Source: Nitrososphaera viennensis EN76
GTDB taxonomy: Archaea; Thermoproteota; Nitrososphaeria; Nitrososphaerales; Nitrososphaeraceae
Length of the DNA stretch: 32,000 bases
Assembly: GCF_000698785.1 (NCBI RefSeq)
Contig: NZ_CP007536.1
Coordinates: 1,590,001 to 1,622,000, forward strand
Direction: 5' to 3'
Shown: positions 24,307-32,000 of the stretch, in pieces
How positions within the stretch are numbered: the stretch's first letter is position 1
How the letters are laid out: each line of letters starts with the position of its first letter
The notes under the pieces: generated by a model
What the model saw: the letters and a program-made list of their open reading frames with translations, nothing else
Databases searched by the model: none
What the model was told of the DNA's origin: nothing
Made by a program: the position numbers and the translations under genes

Positions 24307-24903
24307 TCACACTATATTCTCGGTGTCTACAGTGAAGGAGATCACACTGTCAGTAATTTCAAAATCTACTTTCTTCAGTCCGAAATCCTCAAACATAAAC
24401 TGGTACTGGTTTGAAATGTAGAGCGACCACTTTTTCCCCATTTCATGTTGAATGGTATAGGAATGTTTTGAGTAGTTCACCTCATGTCTGTATGGATAAC
24501 CTGCTATCCTTATCCAGGTTTCTACTACATCCAGAACAGACGTTATATTGTACTCGTTTCTTAGCATCAAGACAAAATTCTTGGTCTCTTTCTTGGCGAT
24601 GTATTCGGCTATCTCAACTAGCTCGCGGTCTGTAGCCAATTCTAGCAGTTTTACTATCAATCCCCTTCTGACCGTCAAGAACCCTGCCTTTGCTGCATTA
24701 GAATGCCAGTCTATATGTTGTTTGAATATCTGTCCGGCAAGAGCGTTAAGGCTTATCTCCTTCTGTTTTGCGTCGTTTCTTAGCCTTTCAATTATTGAGG
24801 TATCCAGTCTAAAAGCTATAGTTTCTGTCTTGCCACTAAGACTACCCATAACCATATGCGCATTGGTGCTGTTGATAAATGTATTTTTCTCGTGCGCTGC
24901 CAT
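24307..24903 (-). CDS. RHH (CopG-like) DNA-binding protein with a conserved C-terminal KWSLY domain, copy A
   Basis: GKTETIAFRLDTSIIERLRNDAKQKEISLNALAGQIFKQHIDW (strand-helix-helix) ... IQHEMGKKWSLYI. The ORF is open to 25029; ATG at 24903 matches the N-terminal length of copies B and C. Confidence 0.7.
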   Translation of the reverse strand: MAAHEKNTFINSTNAHMVMGSLSGKTETIAFRLDTSIIERLRNDAKQKEISLNALAGQIFKQHIDWHSNAAKAGFLTVRRGLIVKLLELATDRELVEIAEYIAKKETKNFVLMLRNEYNITSVLDVVETWIRIAGYPYRHEVNYSKHSYTIQHEMGKKWSLYISNQYQFMFEDFGLKKVDFEITDSVISFTVDTENIV

Positions 24904-25030
24904 ATTCGAATTGTTTGTCAGGTGAAGAAACAAAAAGATATTCTCGATGTATGCTACAAGGAATGTTGCATATACTATTACGCCTAGTCCGGCCGTATCT
25001 TGATACGCAGCAAAATCGCAAGATAACATT

Positions 25031-26002
25031 TCACTTCATTCTACCACCAGAATCTGGAGTCCCGGCAGCCTTTTCCCTTTTCACACGAACTACTGACAAT
25101 GACAGGGCACCGCCAAGTATCAAGCCTATCACCACAAGCGACACGGTGACCGGAATGTGAAGAACGTCTGAAGCAACCATCTTCACGCCTATGAACAGCA
25201 ACAGTGCAATGAGCGCTGGCTTTAGGTAATAGAATTTCTCCATCATCCCGGCAAGCAGAAAGTACAGGCTCCTGAGGCCGAGGATCGCAAAGACGTTTGA
25301 AGTTATGACGATAAAGTGGTCGCTGGTAATCGCAAGCACGGCAGGAATCGAGTCGATGGCAAACACAAGGTCGGTCATCTCGACTATGACAAGCGCGACG
25401 AGCAGAGGAGTGGCGTACAGGACTCCTCCTATCCTTGTGAGGAACCTCCCGTTGTGCAGCTCGGAGGAAACAGGGATCATCTTCTTCAGCATCCTGACTG
25501 CGAGGTTCTTTTCTACCTCGATCTTTTTCTCCTTCTTCTGCACGATCATCCTGGCAGCCGTGAGCAGCAGCATGCCGCCAAAGATAAAGATCATCCAGTG
25601 GAACGTTTCAAGAAGCGACACTCCCACGATTATCAGCGGTATCCTCATCGCTATCGCGCTCAGGATCCCGACGGAAAGGACCCTGTGTTGCATGGCGTGC
25701 GGCACGCCAAGCGACGAAAATATCAGGAGAAATACGAACATGTTGTCGACGCTCAGCGACTTTTCGACCACGTAGCCGGTGACAAACTCGAGCATCTTGT
25801 CACGGCCCATCTGGACGAGGACGAGCGCCGCAAAGACTGCCGCAAGCCCTATCCAGATAATGGTCCATATGAGGCCCTGTCGGAACGCGCTCGTCTCATG
25901 GGCGACCTGCGGCATGCGCCCGGCCAGCCTTCTTATGGCGCCTATCAGCCCTAGGTCTATTGCAAGCGCGACGCCCACAAAGAGCCCGAACAGGACCCAC
26001 AT
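25031..26002 (-). CDS. terC: TerC-family integral membrane protein
   Basis: EKSLSVDNMFVFLLIF and DLVFAIDSIPAVLAIT repeat motifs, about 8-9 TM helices. TTG at 26023 or ATG at 26002. Confidence 0.9.
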   Translation of the reverse strand: MWVLFGLFVGVALAIDLGLIGAIRRLAGRMPQVAHETSAFRQGLIWTIIWIGLAAVFAALVLVQMGRDKMLEFVTGYVVEKSLSVDNMFVFLLIFSSLGVPHAMQHRVLSVGILSAIAMRIPLIIVGVSLLETFHWMIFIFGGMLLLTAARMIVQKKEKKIEVEKNLAVRMLKKMIPVSSELHNGRFLTRIGGVLYATPLLVALVIVEMTDLVFAIDSIPAVLAITSDHFIVITSNVFAILGLRSLYFLLAGMMEKFYYLKPALIALLLFIGVKMVASDVLHIPVTVSLVVIGLILGGALSLSVVRVKREKAAGTPDSGGRMK

Positions 26003-26120
26003 CCCAAGGCCGCCTTCAAACAATCAACGTGTCTGCTTGGCCGGCGTATTTGGGCAGCGCGTCCACTTTGCAACACAATGTAAACACGCCTGCTAAATAG
26101 CAGGAAGGAACAGTATTGTC

Positions 26121-26249
26121 ATGAAAGACAAGGCGGTGTCATGCCCGTACTGCCAGTCCAAGTTCGCAAGCAACGAGGAGCTGTCAAAGCACATCGACAG
26201 GCTGCACCACGGCTCGGGCCTACTTGAGGGAGACTCGAGCAGGTGGTGA
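26121..26249 (+). CDS. C2H2 zinc-finger mini-protein (42 aa)
   Basis: MKDKAVSCPYCQSKFASNEELSKHIDRLHHGSGLLEGDSSRW (C-x2-C-x12-H-x4-H). Divergent from terC and directly upstream of RHH copy B. Confidence 0.5.
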   Translation: MKDKAVSCPYCQSKFASNEELSKHIDRLHHGSGLLEGDSSRW

Positions 26250-26312
26250 TCTTTTTTCTTATCATGCAAATCTTTTAATTCTGTTCAAGCCCAAGCCTGA
26301 CAGACGCCCATT

Positions 26313-26858
26313 TTGCACAAAAGCGAAGCCGAGTCCCAGAAGGGCAAGACCGGAACCATTACGTTCAGGCTGCCGTCCGCCCTGATAGAAGAGCTCAGGC
26401 GCGATGCCGAGGTCGAGGGAGTGAGCCTCAACAGCTACGCGTCCAAGATCTTCTCCAACCACATACTCTGGGAGAGGTATGAAAGGAAGGTTGGCCTCCT
26501 GCCCATGACTGAGGCCTTCCTGAAGGAGACGCTCCACCAGCTGAGCGACGAGCAGGTGGTGAACCTCGCGCAAAAGCTGGAGAAGCAAAAGTTCAAGAAC
26601 ATACTGGCCTTCATGAACGACAACCCTACCGTGGGGGACTTTGCAGAGCTCATAAGGACGTGGCTAAACGTGTCGTGGATGCAGCAGAACGTCGAGGTGA
26701 ACGACGGAGCGTACCGGCTCAAGATACAGCACAACCTCGGGAGCAAGTGGTCGCTCTATGTCAGGACGCTCGTGTCAGAGCTTGCGCAGGACGTCCTGGG
26801 CAAGAAGGCCGGCATCAAGGTCGTGGGAGAGACCATAACGTTCTCGTTTTCCGACTAG
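26313..26858 (+). CDS. RHH (CopG-like) + KWSLY-domain protein, copy B
   Basis: GKTGTITFRLPSALIEELRRDAEVEGVSLNSYASKIFSNHILW ... IQHNLGSKWSLYV. TTG start. Confidence 0.75.
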   Translation: MHKSEAESQKGKTGTITFRLPSALIEELRRDAEVEGVSLNSYASKIFSNHILWERYERKVGLLPMTEAFLKETLHQLSDEQVVNLAQKLEKQKFKNILAFMNDNPTVGDFAELIRTWLNVSWMQQNVEVNDGAYRLKIQHNLGSKWSLYVRTLVSELAQDVLGKKAGIKVVGETITFSFSD

Positions 26859-26949
26859 CGTTCTGATCAGTTTCAGGTCACGTGCCAACGTAGTCGGTTA
26901 TCTTTGGAGCCCTCTTGGCGCGCCTGCCTATCAACTTCAGCACCCTTTC

Positions 26950-27590
26950 CTAGCTTTCTGTCATGGCACCCATCATCTGCAGGAGCTCTAGCGCGTTTGT
27001 GGGCGCTTTTGCATTGTAGTGGTTGTTAAAGTATGCGAACGTCTCGGCCTTTGCAGTTATTGTTTTCATGTTTTTGCCCAAGACGACAGCTCATATTCAG
27101 AATATTTGTGGTCAAACCAGATTTTCTTCCCTCCTGCCGTGTCATCGCAGAGTCCTTACATTTGATCACGACATTCCCTTGATCGCGACGCATTCTTAAC
27201 AGCTATGCTGCTCCTACGTTGAGATCTTTGACATCTATGACTCCATCTATAATACCCGCATCGTTATACAAGATGAAGTGATTTGAGCCTGTAACGCACG
27301 TGTTAGCCCTAAAACATGATGAATTTGATCCCCAATGACTCTCGACATCCTTCGGTTGTTGCATATAACATTACCACTAGTCTTAGTGCAATTCGTTATT
27401 CACCAAAATCGAAAGATAATTATTTCTTTTCTTAGAAATGTATGTAGGAGTCTCGCCGTTTGTTCAAAATCTGCGGGACTCATGTCGTATTTGTCTGCAT
27501 CGCCGGACATAGGTGGAAAAACTATGCACCCTGATGCTTTTTGGCAGATTATGCATGACAGCTACAAGTTCATGAACTATACAAGGGGCG
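26950..27590 (-). pseudogene. Decayed DUF72-family gene (multiple frame breaks, N-terminus missing)
   Basis: Minus-strand pieces lie in three frames: ..VFPPMSGDADKYDMSPADFEQTARLLHTFLRKEIIIFRFW*, ..KIWFDHKYSEYELSSWAKT*, and MKTITAKAETFAYFNNHYNAKAPTNALELLQMMG (26950-27069). Order and motifs (RxxSW; Y-Y-S-E-E-L-x-x-W-A; YFNN....A..NA..L) follow DUF72. Confidence 0.45.
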
Positions 27591-27631
27591 GTTAGGGTCC
27601 TCTCCTATTATGTACATCATTGCCTCTCCCC

Positions 27632-28186
27632 TCAGAAAACACCTCCAATTCCCAAGTTCCCCATTGGCATCCCCTGGGGGGTGGAAACCGCGCTGGTGTT
27701 GGGGTCAACAGTCATCTTGTAGAGCATCCCGCTGTCAACATCCGCGACTGTGATGCTATAGACTACCATATTGCCCTGTGAAACTTCAATGTCGCCTGCA
27801 ATTGCTATGCCATTAGGAATCTGGTCTTCTGCTACATCGGCCGCGTCGACTAGTGTTATGGTGACGTTTTCAAAGTTTGTTACGTTGCCAGCAGCACCAC
27901 CAAGCTCGGCCAAAGGCGTTCCTTCTGTAGATGTGGCAAGAACTCTTCCCGTGCTAGGATCGACGTACACTTTGTATGCCAGCTCGCTATTTAGGTCGGC
28001 CACCGTGATTTTGTATACAAGAGAGTCCTGCACTGCGTCCAAGCTGCCAGCAACCACCGTGCCGTTAGTGATCTGCTCTTCTGCCAAGTCAGTCGCATCC
28101 ACCAGAGTCGCATTAAGGTGCTCGTTCAAAAAGTCCTTTGCTGCCTGTTTGACGTTTATGGTGCCGTTCAGCTGCATTGTTGTCAT
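27632..28186 (-). CDS. Tandem PepSY-domain protein (no signal peptide in this frame)
   Basis: Two repeats: AAKDFLNEHL..VDATDLAEEQITNGTVVAGSL..VYKITVAD..AYKVYVDPSTGRVL and ..LVDAADVAEDQIPNGIAIAGDI..VYSITVAD..LYKMTVDPNT. Confidence 0.75.
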   Translation of the reverse strand: MTTMQLNGTINVKQAAKDFLNEHLNATLVDATDLAEEQITNGTVVAGSLDAVQDSLVYKITVADLNSELAYKVYVDPSTGRVLATSTEGTPLAELGGAAGNVTNFENVTITLVDAADVAEDQIPNGIAIAGDIEVSQGNMVVYSITVADVDSGMLYKMTVDPNTSAVSTPQGMPMGNLGIGGVF

Positions 28187-28383
28187 AGTAGTAGTATTGT
28201 TATTACTAGTGGTGGCAGCTGCGCAAAAGCACTCAAAGGCGTGACCATCGTAGTAGTCGTCGTCATCACTGTTCCCAAAGATGGGAGAGCAGCAAGCACC
28301 AAGCCAACAACAACAGCCGCAACAACTACCGAGGACAGCACCGTGGGATTCAAGAATTTTTTACTTCGGGTTAGACCTGACAT
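28183..28383 (-). CDS. Membrane-anchor ORF, probably the detached N-terminus of the PepSY protein
   Basis: MSGLTRSKKFLNPTVLSSVVVAAVVVGLVLAALPSLG... poly-Thr. Its stop overlaps the PepSY ATG (ctATGAca). The PepSY frame stays open upstream (..AAATTSNNNTTT-M). Confidence 0.45.
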   Translation of the reverse strand: MSGLTRSKKFLNPTVLSSVVVAAVVVGLVLAALPSLGTVMTTTTTMVTPLSAFAQLPPLVITILLL

Positions 28384-28881
28384 TAATACAATTTTCACAG
28401 TTAGCCATCTTAAAACTTGGGTAACACAATTGAGTATCAATCCCATCTGAAATATTCATAACAGAACTTTCTCAAGCTAGGCCTAGGATGTCTGCCAACG
28501 TAAAATCACACCGCTACTAATATGCTACTGCTGCTACCATCAATCGACATGAATCATGATGACGATTATGATAACCTGAAATAGCCCAGAATGCAACAAT
28601 GTGAACAAACAAGTGTACATGAGAACCCTTCTTTCCCATCCTTGCCAAGCAAGCGAACATGCTTGTCAGATTTTATCTTGACCGCCGTCCCTCCCTCTTT
28701 ATCCCCGCAGCAGCACTTCCTGCCATACGCATGCACACGAAACCGTTACACGAGTGCGCACACGCACATTTTTGAACAGTAACGACACAAAACCGTCACA
28801 GCAGAGAGTAAGGAGCACCAGCACGGCCAGCTGCACACATCCTAACTTTTTTAAGTTCTACCAGCACATCATCTACACGAT

Positions 28882-29337
28882 GTGACTCTTCGTAATTTTG
28901 TCAAAACTAATTCTTCCCTGTTAATAGTGGCCGCATTTGCTCTGCTTTGCGATGCACTTCTTTCGCATAAAGAAGCCTCGCGGCACATGAGTGCTGCGAC
29001 CATGGTCGTCTATGCCATGAAGGAAGAAACAGCAGCTACATTCACTAATGCTAATGTTGCCAATGCAAAGGACGATGTCAGGTCAAGCCTTTTCCGGGCT
29101 AGAAAAAGGACATCTGACGGCAAGACGCGGCAGGCCAAATTTCTGATTTGTGACGGCTGTTTCTGGTGCGCATCATTGATTTCGATAGAACCTTTGCACA
29201 AGGGTGAATCCAGGATCGTAAGCTGCCCTGCGTGTGATGGCAGACAAGTAGAGTCGCTTCCTGTATCAATCGACAACAACAACGATGATGATTACGACGG
29301 CGTAGATGCTGCTGCAAGTCTTGGACAACAACAGTAA
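28882..29337 (+). CDS. CxxC...CPxC zinc-finger protein with an Asn/Asp-rich tail (paralogue of 18499-18774)
   Basis: ...AKFLICDGCFWCASLISIEPLHKGESRIVSCPACDGRQVESLPVSIDNNNDDDYDGVDAAASLGQQQ. GTG start; internal ATGs are possible. Confidence 0.55.
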   Translation: MTLRNFVKTNSSLLIVAAFALLCDALLSHKEASRHMSAATMVVYAMKEETAATFTNANVANAKDDVRSSLFRARKRTSDGKTRQAKFLICDGCFWCASLISIEPLHKGESRIVSCPACDGRQVESLPVSIDNNNDDDYDGVDAAASLGQQQ

Positions 29338-29464
29338 GAAAAGCGATTTCTGGTCATCCCCATTACTACGGCCATTGTTGTACGTCTAGAATCAAAATAT
29401 TATCTTACCCGCGCCAGCTACGGCCGTTTTTAGTGTATTGAAAAAATATGTGTATGAAGTGCGC

Positions 29465-29701
29465 CTATGCCGTAGTCTGTACTTCTATTACCCAGTCGCA
29501 CTTCATTCCAAGCTTCTGATGGGAATTTTCTACTGCTTCCTTATTGGGAGCATCCAGAATGCAGAAAACTTTGTTCTCTTGCTTGTTGTAAAGGATGTTC
29601 TTGTGCGTGATTCCAAATTCATCTGTTGGTGATTTCTGCGCCTGCTTTAGTGCCTCTTCTTCTACAGGACCCATTGGATGCGAATCAAGAAATGTTGGCA
29701 T
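29465..29701 (-). CDS. DUF4242-family protein
   Basis: MPTFLDSHPMGPVEEEALKQAQ...DEFGITHKNILYNKQENKVFCILDAPNKEAVENSHQKLGMKCDWVIEV follows the DUF4242 pattern (MP.F+D.H ... VFC+.eAP..eAV...H). Confidence 0.7.
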   Translation of the reverse strand: MPTFLDSHPMGPVEEEALKQAQKSPTDEFGITHKNILYNKQENKVFCILDAPNKEAVENSHQKLGMKCDWVIEVQTTA

Positions 29702-29877
29702 TACTACAGTTTTCGAGTCCGACGCTTTAAGGCTTCTTTCAGAAATTTACTAAATGTGCTAACCGAAAAATCTACTATGACATATATTATGAAACCCGGC
29801 AGGATATTCTGCTGTCAGTCAATTCACTCTATTACCCTAGGTTCAAAAAAAGGGAATGGTGATGATGATGCCACCTA

Positions 29878-30000
29878 CTACTGCTGCTTCCGGGAAGTAT
29901 CTTGGTGGAATCTCTTGAGGTGGTACTTCAGTTGCCCCTCACTTCCGCCCACGTCCTTGTTGCAGTAAACACATCTCCAAACTTCTTTGATTATTCCCAC
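29878..30000 (-). CDS. C2H2 zinc-finger mini-protein (40 aa, GTG start), divergent from amoC
   Basis: (V)GIIKEVWRCVYCNKDVGGSEGQLKYHLKRFHQDTSRKQQ, with an AT-rich TATA-like stretch upstream on the minus strand. Not in the ORF track. Confidence 0.4.
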   Translation of the reverse strand: MGIIKEVWRCVYCNKDVGGSEGQLKYHLKRFHQDTSRKQQ

Positions 30001-30270
30001 TTCGTCATTTCAAGAAGACATAATTTTAAAAAATTTACAATCCTGCAAAAATTGCCTATGTCGGCTTTTGCCAAGCCGCTTCATAACTCTTTAAGCATAC
30101 TCCTTATCTTGTTTCTTCCCTCTTGCGGACGACGACGTAACTTGGAAAAATAAAAAGATATTTTGCAGAGTTTCTTTTCGCTCTTATTGCTCCTCTCAAG
30201 CGCATCAACTTGCTCGCCTGTGAGAAAAGGAGCTTATACTGATGGCCGCGGCAGCATCTGAAATAGACAA

Positions 30271-30285
30271 GTCTGCAGTGCAGAC
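30271..30285. promoter_or_regulatory. Inverted repeat GTCTGCA-g-TGCAGAC
   Basis: 7-bp arms at 30271-30277 and 30279-30285, in the amoC upstream region. Confidence 0.4.
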
Positions 30286-30388
30286 ATCATGACTCCAATA
30301 TCGCGACCAAGAAATAGAATTAGAAAAGTCGCAGTCTCTGCAAACACCGAGAAACGAGCATTATCTTGAAATGCAGTAAAGCAGAGTC

Positions 30389-30442
30389 TGCACATGCATG
30401 CACTTTATTGCAGGGATTTGCATGGAAATGCATGTTTTTGCA
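30389..30442. promoter_or_regulatory. Helically phased array of six TGCA motifs (exact 10-bp period)
   Basis: TGCA at 30389, 30399, 30409, 30419, 30429 and 30439, plus one at 30395. Those at 30395, 30419 and 30429 extend to TGCATG. Lies about 195-250 bp upstream of the amoC ATG. Confidence 0.6.
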
Positions 30443-30636
30443 AAGAATGCCTATCGATATTATAAATCATTATTGCTCATCCTGAACAACATATAATTTC
30501 TATAATAACTAGCTCTTGTCAGTGTGACTAATAGCACAGTATCCAATGCATGTCTGTAAAATGTATATCATTACTTGTAGATTTTGCAACACAAGTAATT
30601 AGAATTACGATTTTCTATAAATGGCGAGGAACTAAA

Positions 30637-31200
30637 ATGGCACAAATGCCTGCACTGATACCAAAAGAAGTCGAAATACAGAGGCTGAAAAAGATCTACA
30701 TCTTTGTCATATGCCTTGGTTCTATCGCAGCCTCCGTCGAAGTCGACAACTTCGTCGATGGCTCGCTGCACCAGACTGCAATCAGAGACTCGGCCTTCAC
30801 GCCGGCCCACTGGTGGCTGTACAGCCACTTCGTGGCCCTTCCAATCGGCTGGGGCATGGTGGCCATGTACGATAGAAGGGTCCCGGTACTCAGAGGTCCA
30901 GGCAACTCGATGAACACGGGCTTGAAGATAACCATCATTGGCTATCTGGCAACCATGTTCACCATAGGTGTGAATGAACTCTGGCACTTCTGGTTCGTGG
31001 AAGAAATCTTCTCCGTTCCGAACCACTGGATGTTCAACATGGGTGTCGTAGTGGCATTCATGGGCGCTCTGGCCTATGTCGTCAGAGTGTACGCCAGACT
31101 GGTGGAACTGGGTGCAGAAACACCAGCAAAGAACCCGTATGTAGCAGAGTTGTACAAGCTAGCGCTGGAAGGCAAGCTGTACAGCAGGTCGATACCGTAG
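30637..31200 (+). CDS. amoC: Ammonia monooxygenase subunit C (archaeal type), solitary copy
   Basis: MAQMPALIPKEVEIQRLKK...FVDGSLHQTAIRDSAFTPAHWWLYSHFVALP...NELWHFWFVEEIFSVPNHWMFN...YSRSIP matches archaeal AmoC along its whole length. The longer ORF from 30550 is unlikely. TATAAA at 30616-30621. Confidence 0.9.
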   Translation: MAQMPALIPKEVEIQRLKKIYIFVICLGSIAASVEVDNFVDGSLHQTAIRDSAFTPAHWWLYSHFVALPIGWGMVAMYDRRVPVLRGPGNSMNTGLKITIIGYLATMFTIGVNELWHFWFVEEIFSVPNHWMFNMGVVVAFMGALAYVVRVYARLVELGAETPAKNPYVAELYKLALEGKLYSRSIP

Positions 31201-31275
31201 GAAAGAACAAACGAACAAAAAAGAGACATACATACACACACCGAGATAGAGGGAGAGAATATACGCATCTGTGCT

Positions 31276-31325
31276 GAGGACAGGGAGGGACTGTGCTGGT
31301 TTCCCTGTCCTCATTTTCTTTTCTT
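31276..31325 (+). terminator. Hairpin plus T-rich tract downstream of amoC
   Basis: GAGGACAGGGA (31276-31286) pairs with TCCCTGTCCTC (31302-31312), then attttcttttctt. Lies between the convergent amoC and RHH copy C. Confidence 0.5.
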
Positions 31326-31342
31326 AAAACAAATAGAGAAGG

Positions 31343-31900
31343 TCAGTTTTTGTATTCGAGCGATACAAGCGAGTCGCTTATGAAAAAAACTGGCGCTTTT
31401 CCAAACGCCTCCAGCGTAGACTCGAGCATTATCTTCAGGTAGAGGGACCAGTTCTTTCCCAGATCGTGTTTTATGATTATGTTATGGCCGCCGTCTTCTC
31501 GCGTGCGGTGCGCGACTTCGCAGCCCGAATTCTTCATCCTCATCTCGATCCATGAAATGAATGCATCAGAATTGAATCTGCCCTGTACAAAGATTGACAT
31601 ATCGATGGCGGTACTCTTTCCAATTCCATTTGCAAGCTTTTCGACCTCGTCCTGGTTCATACTTGCAAATATGCTTGCCAGCACCGGTTTTGGAAACGGC
31701 ATCATTCCAATCTTGGATTCAAACAGGTCCCATTCAACATGCTGGCGCAATACCTGGTTAATGTATGCGTTAAGGCTTGTCTGCCTTTTTTCTGATTCTG
31801 CGCGCAGTTTCTTCATTACGGCCGAACTGACACGAAAAGTTGCATTGACAGAGTCTTCATGAAACGTGCTACTATCTTCTTTGAAATCAGCTTCATGCAT
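31343..31900 (-). CDS. RHH (CopG-like) + KWSLY-domain protein, copy C
   Basis: NATFRVSSAVMKKLRAESEKRQTSLNAYINQVLRQHVEW ... IKHDLGKNWSLYL. Convergent with amoC. Confidence 0.75.
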   Translation of the reverse strand: MHEADFKEDSSTFHEDSVNATFRVSSAVMKKLRAESEKRQTSLNAYINQVLRQHVEWDLFESKIGMMPFPKPVLASIFASMNQDEVEKLANGIGKSTAIDMSIFVQGRFNSDAFISWIEMRMKNSGCEVAHRTREDGGHNIIIKHDLGKNWSLYLKIMLESTLEAFGKAPVFFISDSLVSLEYKN

Positions 31901-32000
31901 ATGTGTATGTGCATATGTACAATCTATGGTCTGTAATTATAGTCTAGGTTAACCATGTTAACTGTCTGAAGCAGCGCCGCGCGATGCAGGCCCGGCAAAA

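Follow-up and report, generated by a model that had tools for sequence, protein, structure and literature searches.

A conserved array of helically phased TGCA boxes upstream of amoC4-type genes in Nitrososphaera viennensis and its relatives, a candidate cooperative operator

We analyzed a 32,000-nt stretch of DNA from the soil ammonia oxidizer Nitrososphaera viennensis EN76 (NZ_CP007536.1, positions 1,590,001 to 1,622,000; the whole stretch is hereafter termed the window, and its positions serve as coordinates throughout) and found six TGCA boxes at exact 10-bp spacing upstream of amoC4, a gene for ammonia monooxygenase subunit C. Based on comparison with related loci, this array is a conserved cis-element that has not been described before and that is particular to the amoC4-type paralog. 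Because related species have it at the same position, it probably serves a regulatory protein as a docking array. The architecture is of a known kind, that of the phased tetramer-box operator, and from this likeness we infer the function. The reading that we tentatively favor, with a little less than even confidence, is that of a conserved cis-regulatory operator that is bound cooperatively by dimers, most likely those of a ribbon-helix-helix (RHH) protein encoded next to amoC4, and that tunes amoC4; here, we infer that a protein binds the array, that the binder is the RHH neighbor, and that amoC4 is the target.

Position and phasing of the TGCA boxes

The array (30389 to 30442, without strand assignment) is composed of TGCA boxes starting at 30389, 30399, 30409, 30419, 30429 and 30439, such that the successive 10-bp units from 30389 read TGCAcaTGCA, TGCActttat, TGCAgggatt, TGCAtggaaa, TGCAtgtttt and TGCAaagaat. 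A seventh TGCA (30395 to 30398, likewise unstranded) is out of phase and falls within a 15-nt tract of alternating pyrimidines and purines, TGCACATGCATGCAC (30389 to 30403). All of these TGCA coordinates, six at 10-bp intervals and the extra one at 30395, had been given correctly in a first-pass annotation of this DNA, as had the extension to TGCATG at three sites (30395, 30419 and 30429) and the presence of 14 TGCA within 30160 to 30590, which we recounted. Downstream of the end of the array, the conserved AAGTAATTAGAAT lies at a distance of ~150 bp and the amoC4 ATG at ~195 bp.

The first-pass annotation had assumed that a tetramer is expected about once per 256 nt, or 1.7 times in 431 nt, which was too low because TGCA is 1.8-fold over-represented in the window (228 copies, or ~1 per 140 nt); ~3 are expected in 431 nt. 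Per 430 nt, the window averages 3.0 TGCA with a standard deviation of 2.1, and nowhere exceeds the 14 counted here. Moreover, the pattern TGCA-N6-TGCA-N6-TGCA had four matches in the window, all inside the array, and none in 100 dinucleotide-preserving shuffles. At other periods from 4 to 24, the longest TGCA run in the window comprised two to three boxes, and scanning the window for all 256 tetramers at periods of 7 to 12 exposed no other run of at least four besides the TGCA array. The phasing of the boxes is far beyond chance, with a chance expectation for six phased sites of ~1e-9 per window (f = 0.0071). An ordinary slippage-derived tandem repeat (minisatellite) was rejected for want of whole-unit similarity: Tandem Repeats Finder assigned 1.9 copies only, barely registering the repeat because solely the four core bases recur, and the six spacers are ~30% identical among themselves.

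Distribution and conservation of the array among amoC loci

Two surveys were used to examine conservation. The first comprised 80 amoC loci from GTDB genomes, surveyed via amoC itself, among which we found no phased array or homologous upstream DNA and a downstream RHH gene at a single locus (L069). The second comprised homologs of the RHH protein and the contigs encoding them, and conservation emerged from these loci. Specifically, amoC4-type orthologs were recognized by a convergent RHH gene, with the N. evergladensis ortholog (P0008) and the five further N. viennensis amoC loci left out of the comparison. Additionally, a metagenome search with the RHH alignment returned five loci, which confirmed the RHH-amoC synteny and contained no further exact phased array.

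Alignment of the amoC4-type loci showed that their upstream regions are homologous. In the 10-bp register where the window has six TGCA, L088 has TGCA TGCA TGCA TGAA TGTA TGCA, L085 has AGCA TGCA TGCA TGCA, L091 has GGCA CGCA TGCA TGCA, and L097 has TGCA AGCA TACA TACA. The boxes read TGCA TACA GAAA TACA TGCA in L069 and TGCA TACA CAAA TACA CGCA in L095, are degenerate in L099, and are lacking in L098 and L100. When one mismatch per box was allowed, the period-10 runs comprised six boxes in both the window and L088, and four in each of L085, L091 and L097. Runs of at least four were present in 5/10 amoC4-type loci vs 0/67 other amoC loci (Fisher P ~1e-5), counts that do not represent independent events because the loci are related. 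The start of the array was located at -228 to -253 from the ATG in all five run-bearing loci, and the last box was at -198 in three of the five.

The first-pass annotation had proposed the upstream regions of amoC copies as the place to look for conservation, and this was borne out in part: the array is in register and at the same ATG distance in L085, L088, L091 and L097, and is found at 0/67 other amoC loci, by which we rejected it as a general amoC feature. Nor is it missing upstream of amoC orthologs, being kept in amoC4-type loci and degenerate in L069, L095 and L099.

A logo over 34 units gave T in 27, G in 26, C in 30 and A in 34 at the core positions. The flanks, which were not used in choosing the units, had A in 22/34 at position 5 and T in 26/34 at position 10, so that the unit reads tTGCAa followed by four free bases. 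Four to six such self-palindromic boxes, one per helical turn, all face the same side of the DNA. Between orthologs, the cores were 75–94% identical vs 23–50% for the spacers; judged by this comparison, selection acts on the box cores and has spared the spacers. The genes upstream vary by species, and the L085 array continues into the stop codon of a phosphoribosyltransferase gene on the same strand. Across the array and amoC4, two short ENA contigs (L081 and L082, one from a run labelled synthetic metagenome) matched the window at 100% identity, and they provide no independent evidence of conservation because they are from the same strain.

We also made two observations on amoC promoters beyond the array. 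The RHH-linked amoC of L100 (L100:1256-1640) keeps part of the block that follows the array in its orthologs (TATGATTATCATTGTTGCTC), without the array, and has a leaderless-type proximal promoter of another paralog group, which suggests that its promoter was replaced through recombination. Separately, a single TGCA immediately precedes the TATA box (e.g., aacTGCAggTTAAAATA), at -36/-37, in 17/68 other amoC loci (L002, L003, L006–L008, L010, L018, L022, L029, L039, L049, L051, L059, L061, L063, L064 and L076), such that amoC genes of the Nitrososphaeraceae may commonly have TGCA as a promoter-proximal element.

The convergent RHH gene and the weighing of a proposed cooperative operator

The candidate binder is encoded by the gene convergent with amoC4 (31343 to 31900, - strand), the product of which is a 185-aa protein (AIC16171.1) with an N-terminal RHH domain and, at its C-terminus, a domain of ~120 aa that is conserved in the family. 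Nearly every locus with the RHH gene has it in convergent orientation to amoC, and RHH-amoC synteny was present in L069, L085, L087, L088 and L090–L100. Among 22 family members, RHH profiles matched as HicB (13/22), CopG_antitoxin (9/22) and RHH_1 (4/22), and when a profile of the family was compared with PDB sequences the Arc repressor was best (E = 0.041), followed by AvtR (E = 0.45). The AlphaFold model (mean predicted local distance difference test score 76) comprised two RHH helices and then an alpha/beta domain, for which Foldseek reported weak similarity to H-NOX and Bet3 folds (template modeling scores of 0.35–0.43). This uncharacterized RHH family has three paralogs in the window (24307–25029, - strand; 26313–26858, + strand; and 31343–31900, - strand), one of which is co-oriented with TerC, and its C-terminal domain of ~120 aa has invariant H145, G148, W151, S152 and Y154.

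The promoter of the RHH gene (31896 to 31962, - strand) comprises GTTAAC-ATG-GTTAAC (31948–31962), the TATA box ACTATAAT (31936–31943), and TGCA boxes at 31910–31913 and 31896–31899, the latter overlapping the RHH start codon. Because TGCA boxes occupy the interval from the TATA box to the start codon of its own gene, the RHH protein may be autoregulated. Exact TGCA runs of at least three were also scanned for in 471 kb of fetched Nitrososphaeraceae DNA, with five runs at period 10 vs zero to two at each other period. Two of these five were upstream of amoC4-type genes (L085 and L088), and the other three were between the RHH TATA box and ATG (L083, L084 and L087). The phased RHH promoters follow the order GTTAACATAGTTAAC-n4-ACTATAAT-TGCA-n6-TGCA-n6-TGCA-n7-ATG, and two TGCA boxes are kept in the RHH promoters of L088, L094, L099, L100, L101 and the window. 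In the 792 bp around RHH start codons (66 bp each), we counted 21 TGCA vs 5.6 expected, a ~4-fold enrichment.

Other features of these promoters were noted. A GTTAAC-ATR-GTTAAC palindrome pair is located 4 nt upstream of the RHH TATA box in the window (31948–31962), L083, L085, L087, L088 and L094, and another amoC paralog type (L001 and L004) has a comparable pair, GTTAAY...GTTAAT, upstream of its TATA box, with an RHH paralog 2.2 kb upstream in L004. The pair could be a strong B recognition element (BRE) or a second operator. Long tracts in which pyrimidines and purines alternate perfectly surround RHH start codons, reaching 28 nt in the window (TGTACATATGCACATACACATATGCATG, 31896–31923) and appearing also in L083, L085, L087 and L088; the first 15 nt of the array (30389–30403) share this alternation.

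Within the mechanism that we favor, dimers of a sequence-specific DNA-binding protein would bind the boxes cooperatively, a short nucleoprotein filament would form ~200–250 bp upstream of amoC4-type genes, and the filament would tune expression of the amoC4 paralog. The likeliest binder would be the RHH protein from 31343–31900, which has a C-terminal, putatively ligand-sensing domain. An RHH filament is proposed because CopG reads TGCA boxes and ParG coats arrays of tetramer boxes. RHH dimers recognize self-palindromic boxes of 4–6 bp placed in each major groove along a single face of the DNA. CopG of pMV158, an RHH repressor, recognizes self-palindromic TGCA boxes, and four of its dimers bind cooperatively to a single face at intervals of one helical turn (PMC2724298, PMC3413123). 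The likeness of the array to CopG and Arc operators extends to TGCA boxes on a single face at intervals of about one helical turn, and to an RHH gene that adjoins the putatively regulated gene. However, the CopG operator has two central TGCA 5 bp apart (a 9-bp offset) and two weaker outer sites, whereas the array has six exact boxes at a 10-bp offset, and the CopG operator overlaps its own promoter, whereas ~150–200 bp separate the array from the likely core promoter of amoC4, which lies downstream. Furthermore, CopG is a plasmid protein of 45 aa, whereas the predicted binder of the array is chromosomal and archaeal, is 185 aa long and has a C-terminal domain in addition.

Dimers of the RHH protein ParG cooperatively coat ~100-bp arrays of degenerate tetramer boxes with short AT-rich spacers (PMC3130281, PMC3413123). 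The ParG/parH centromere and OF operator (TP228), as well as ParR/parC and the heptad arrays of the omega protein, have conserved boxes and variable spacers, as does the array. Unlike the array, which has a 10-bp period and lies at a chromosomal metabolic gene, the ParG boxes (ACTC) have 4-bp spacers and an 8-bp period and function in plasmid partition or autoregulation, and there is no partition ATPase near the array. RHH transcription factors from archaeal systems include SvtR (SIRV1) and AvtR (AFV6), which nucleate at a site and oligomerize along DNA; these are viral and have different sites, whereas the candidate here is chromosomal, and we know of no helically phased tetramer array described for either. 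In sum with respect to RHH-type operators, the array has short self-palindromic boxes, a 10-bp spacing that falls in the range of 8–11 bp at which neighboring dimers share a face and can touch, and conserved cores with variable spacers. The syntenic RHH gene has two to three TGCA boxes in the promoters of most relatives, but in N. viennensis its promoter has two, 14 bp apart, and the GTTAAC pair is an alternative site.

Several points weigh against the favored reading, in addition to the relatedness of the loci compared. The array does not abut the likely amoC4 core promoter, lying ~150–200 bp upstream of it, which is an unusual distance in that characterized archaeal regulators, CopG and Arc usually bind at or next to the promoter. 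The box copies are degenerate in three further amoC4-type loci from a distant clade (L069, L095 and L099), and the array was not found in two RHH-linked loci (L098 and L100). The RHH assignment is drawn from profile matches that are weak, though mutually consistent, and the two TGCA boxes of the N. viennensis RHH promoter are 14 bp apart and not phased. Finally, GTTAAC-N3-GTTAAC could equally be the RHH operator, and the TGCA beside the TATA box of many other amoC promoters may point to a more general factor.

These last points lead to the alternative that survives best, which we nonetheless regard as rather unlikely, namely that the array is the operator of a different factor: a helix-turn-helix (HTH) dimer, an Lrp/AsnC-type oligomer that bridges boxes and wraps DNA, or a general amo/BRE-proximal factor. 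Lrp-type regulators bind cooperatively to multiple regularly spaced sites upstream of the promoter and wrap DNA, and the Ss-LrpB box of Sulfolobus is TTGYAW5TRCAA. The TTGCA of the array resembles the Ss-LrpB half-site, with TTGCA/TGCAA half-sites being shared with Ss-LrpB and archaeal Lrp boxes, and an Ss-LrpB-type 15-bp box with one mismatch, TTGTAGATTTTGCAA (30575–30589), is located beside the core promoter as the sole match with at most one mismatch in the 32-kb window. The TGCA at -36/-37 in 17/68 other amoC loci and the possibility that the GTTAAC-N3-GTTAAC pair of the RHH promoters is the real RHH site are likewise in keeping with a different factor. Yet each box is two-fold symmetric, which suits one dimer per major groove, as for an RHH protein, over one HTH monomer per box. 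In addition, Lrp boxes are 15-bp palindromes ~30 bp apart with a 9-bp internal offset, in contrast to the 10-bp offset of the array, and inside the array there was no match with up to two mismatches to the Lrp-type 15-bp palindrome TTGYAWWWWWTRCAA. Lastly, phased runs in the 471-kb scan were confined to amoC4-type upstream regions and RHH promoters.

We consider it improbable that the array is a structural DNA element, in which phased, flexible TG/CA steps would confer anisotropic bendability, positioning a histone or other chromatin protein over ~60 bp or bending the upstream region. The array units have a GC core and are AT-rich at positions 8–10 (in five to six of the six units) as well as at 1 and 4, amounting to a 10-bp alternation of WW and SS (W, A or T; S, G or C). 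The array length of ~54–60 bp is near that of the DNA wrapped by an archaeal histone tetramer, and long alternating pyrimidine-purine tracts occur at RHH promoters too. WW/SS periodicity would suffice for such an element, yet the core is always G-C flanked by T and A (6/6 in the window), C and A are retained in 30–34 of 34 units across orthologs, and the composition pattern of the spacers is not kept between species. Moreover, the array contains one A/T tract of at least four (T5, at 30435), with none in helical phase. Thus, of the two interpretations in the first-pass annotation, the binding of dimers on one face fits the CopG precedent by analogy, while curvature from phased A-tracts was not seen. 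A neutral remnant, that is, a functionless decayed 10-bp minisatellite or by-product of general TGCA richness, is very unlikely in our estimation. In its favor are the over-representation of TGCA in the window, the distance of the array from the core promoter, and the fact that a single species has the most perfect array while some relatives have degenerate copies or none. Against it, decay would strike cores and spacers equally, whereas here cores are perfect with spacers at chance similarity, register and ATG distance are kept across species with differing flanking genes, and neither the chance expectation nor the shuffles accommodate the phasing.

Genomic context and significance of the array

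Several further elements flank the array. A perfect 7+1+7 palindrome, GTCTGCA-g-TGCAGAC, reported in the first-pass annotation, is present as described (30271 to 30285, unstranded) and holds two TGCA. Its GTCTGCA is seen again at 30386, and the palindrome is lineage-specific, with other genes occupying the position in orthologs. Following the last box, the alignments revealed a conserved block, TTGCAAAGAATGCCTATCGATATTATAAATCATTATTGCTC (30437 to 30480, + strand), that is near-identical in L085 and L088, partially kept in L100, and contains the TATA-like ATTATAAAT (~30460–30468), readable on both strands, such that the array adjoins a putative promoter. An nhmmer profile of the array and this block matched orthologous sites only.

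Closer to the gene, a conserved promoter-proximal segment (30575 to 30605, + strand) is formed by TTGTAGATTTTGCAA (30575–30589) and then ACAAGTAATTAGAAT (30591–30605), the latter being the likely BRE/TATA of amoC4-type genes. This segment is followed by the TATA-like TTTCTATAAA (30612–30621) and a Shine-Dalgarno-like GAGG (30626–30629), which together span 30612 to 30629 (+ strand); the GAGG is kept in orthologs, while TTTCTATAAA is not. Besides the Shine-Dalgarno-like GAGG, amoC4-type genes have ~10 additional nt; most of the other amoC paralogs look leaderless, with a TATA box at ~-38 to -27. The leaderless look of amoC has been reported before (PMC3379541). Our literature search returned no publication on N. 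viennensis transcription start sites.

An Rfam search of 29700–31400 gave no match at E ≤1, and an RNA element was rejected on that basis. Small open reading frames (ORFs) were rejected as an explanation of the region, as all six frames are broken and none is common to the window, L085, L088 and L091. This included a minus-strand 37-aa His/Cys-rich ORF (30320–30433), which is not conserved, and plus-strand ORFs, for which the same holds; the richness of the former in His, Cys and Ala arises because TGCA yields those residues in three frames.

The amoC4 gene (NVIE_019080; 30637 to 31200, + strand) encodes a 187-aa protein that matches Pfam AmoC and is identical to A0A060HLS1. Its start codon is placed as in other AmoC, at the standard ATG favored as the start in PMC10030591. 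N. viennensis has six amoC copies, with AmoC6 as the main subunit, to which AmoC4 is 96% identical (PMC10030591). Under copper limitation, amoC4 was slightly upregulated, with a log2 fold change of +0.54 (PMC7785015, PMC10030591), and the upstream DUF4242 gene NVIE_019070 was up by +1.04.

Neighboring genes in the window encode the DUF4242 protein, a PepSY protein, TerC, a BED/C2H2-like mini-ORF and the three RHH paralogs. Proteins encoded around amoC4 match the N. viennensis entries AIC16160, AIC16169 and AIC16171 identically. The 40-aa BED/C2H2-like mini-ORF (29878 to 30000, - strand) is located upstream of the array, and a second tiny zinc-finger ORF, of the classical C2H2 type (MKDKAVSCPYCQSKF...HIDRLHH; 26121–26249, + strand), lies between TerC and an RHH paralog. 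No homologs of either were found in the fetched loci, and the C2H2/BED mini-ORF was rejected as the partner of the array, since it is not syntenic in any ortholog, where the upstream neighbors differ. We also noted metal-related surroundings of the RHH-amoC4 pair. In the window (25031–29701), these comprise TerC, PepSY and the DUF4242 nickel-binding-like protein that is induced under copper limitation, and in relatives a multicopper oxidase (L088:766-2250), a small His-rich protein (L085:3059-3301) and a DUF4396 protein (L090:1505-2401).

The first-pass annotation knew of no described element of this kind for archaeal amo genes, and published work accords with this. In the comparison of Bartossek 2012, amoC yielded no regulatory motif that was conserved (PMC3379541), Hodgskiss 2023 did not find a motif common to the amo promoters (PMC10030591), and the copper-response motifs of Reyes 2020 differ in sequence from the TGCA array. 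A more far-reaching and speculative proposal, which we think unlikely, is that an archaeal ammonia monooxygenase subunit has here its first dedicated transcriptional switch, made up of the array and the convergent RHH-sensor gene, with the C-terminal domain sensing a small molecule. In such a switch, what that domain senses would relate to ammonia oxidation or metal status, with nitric oxide, a hydrophobic ligand and copper status as examples, the ligand would control assembly of the RHH filament on the phased TGCA boxes, and the filament would decide when amoC4 is made alongside or instead of AmoC6.

Among archaeal ammonia monooxygenase genes, amoC4 would with this array be the first to have a candidate control element, and, as a conserved and easily mutated cis-element accompanied by a candidate regulator, AIC16171.1, the array makes paralog-specific regulation of amo directly testable.

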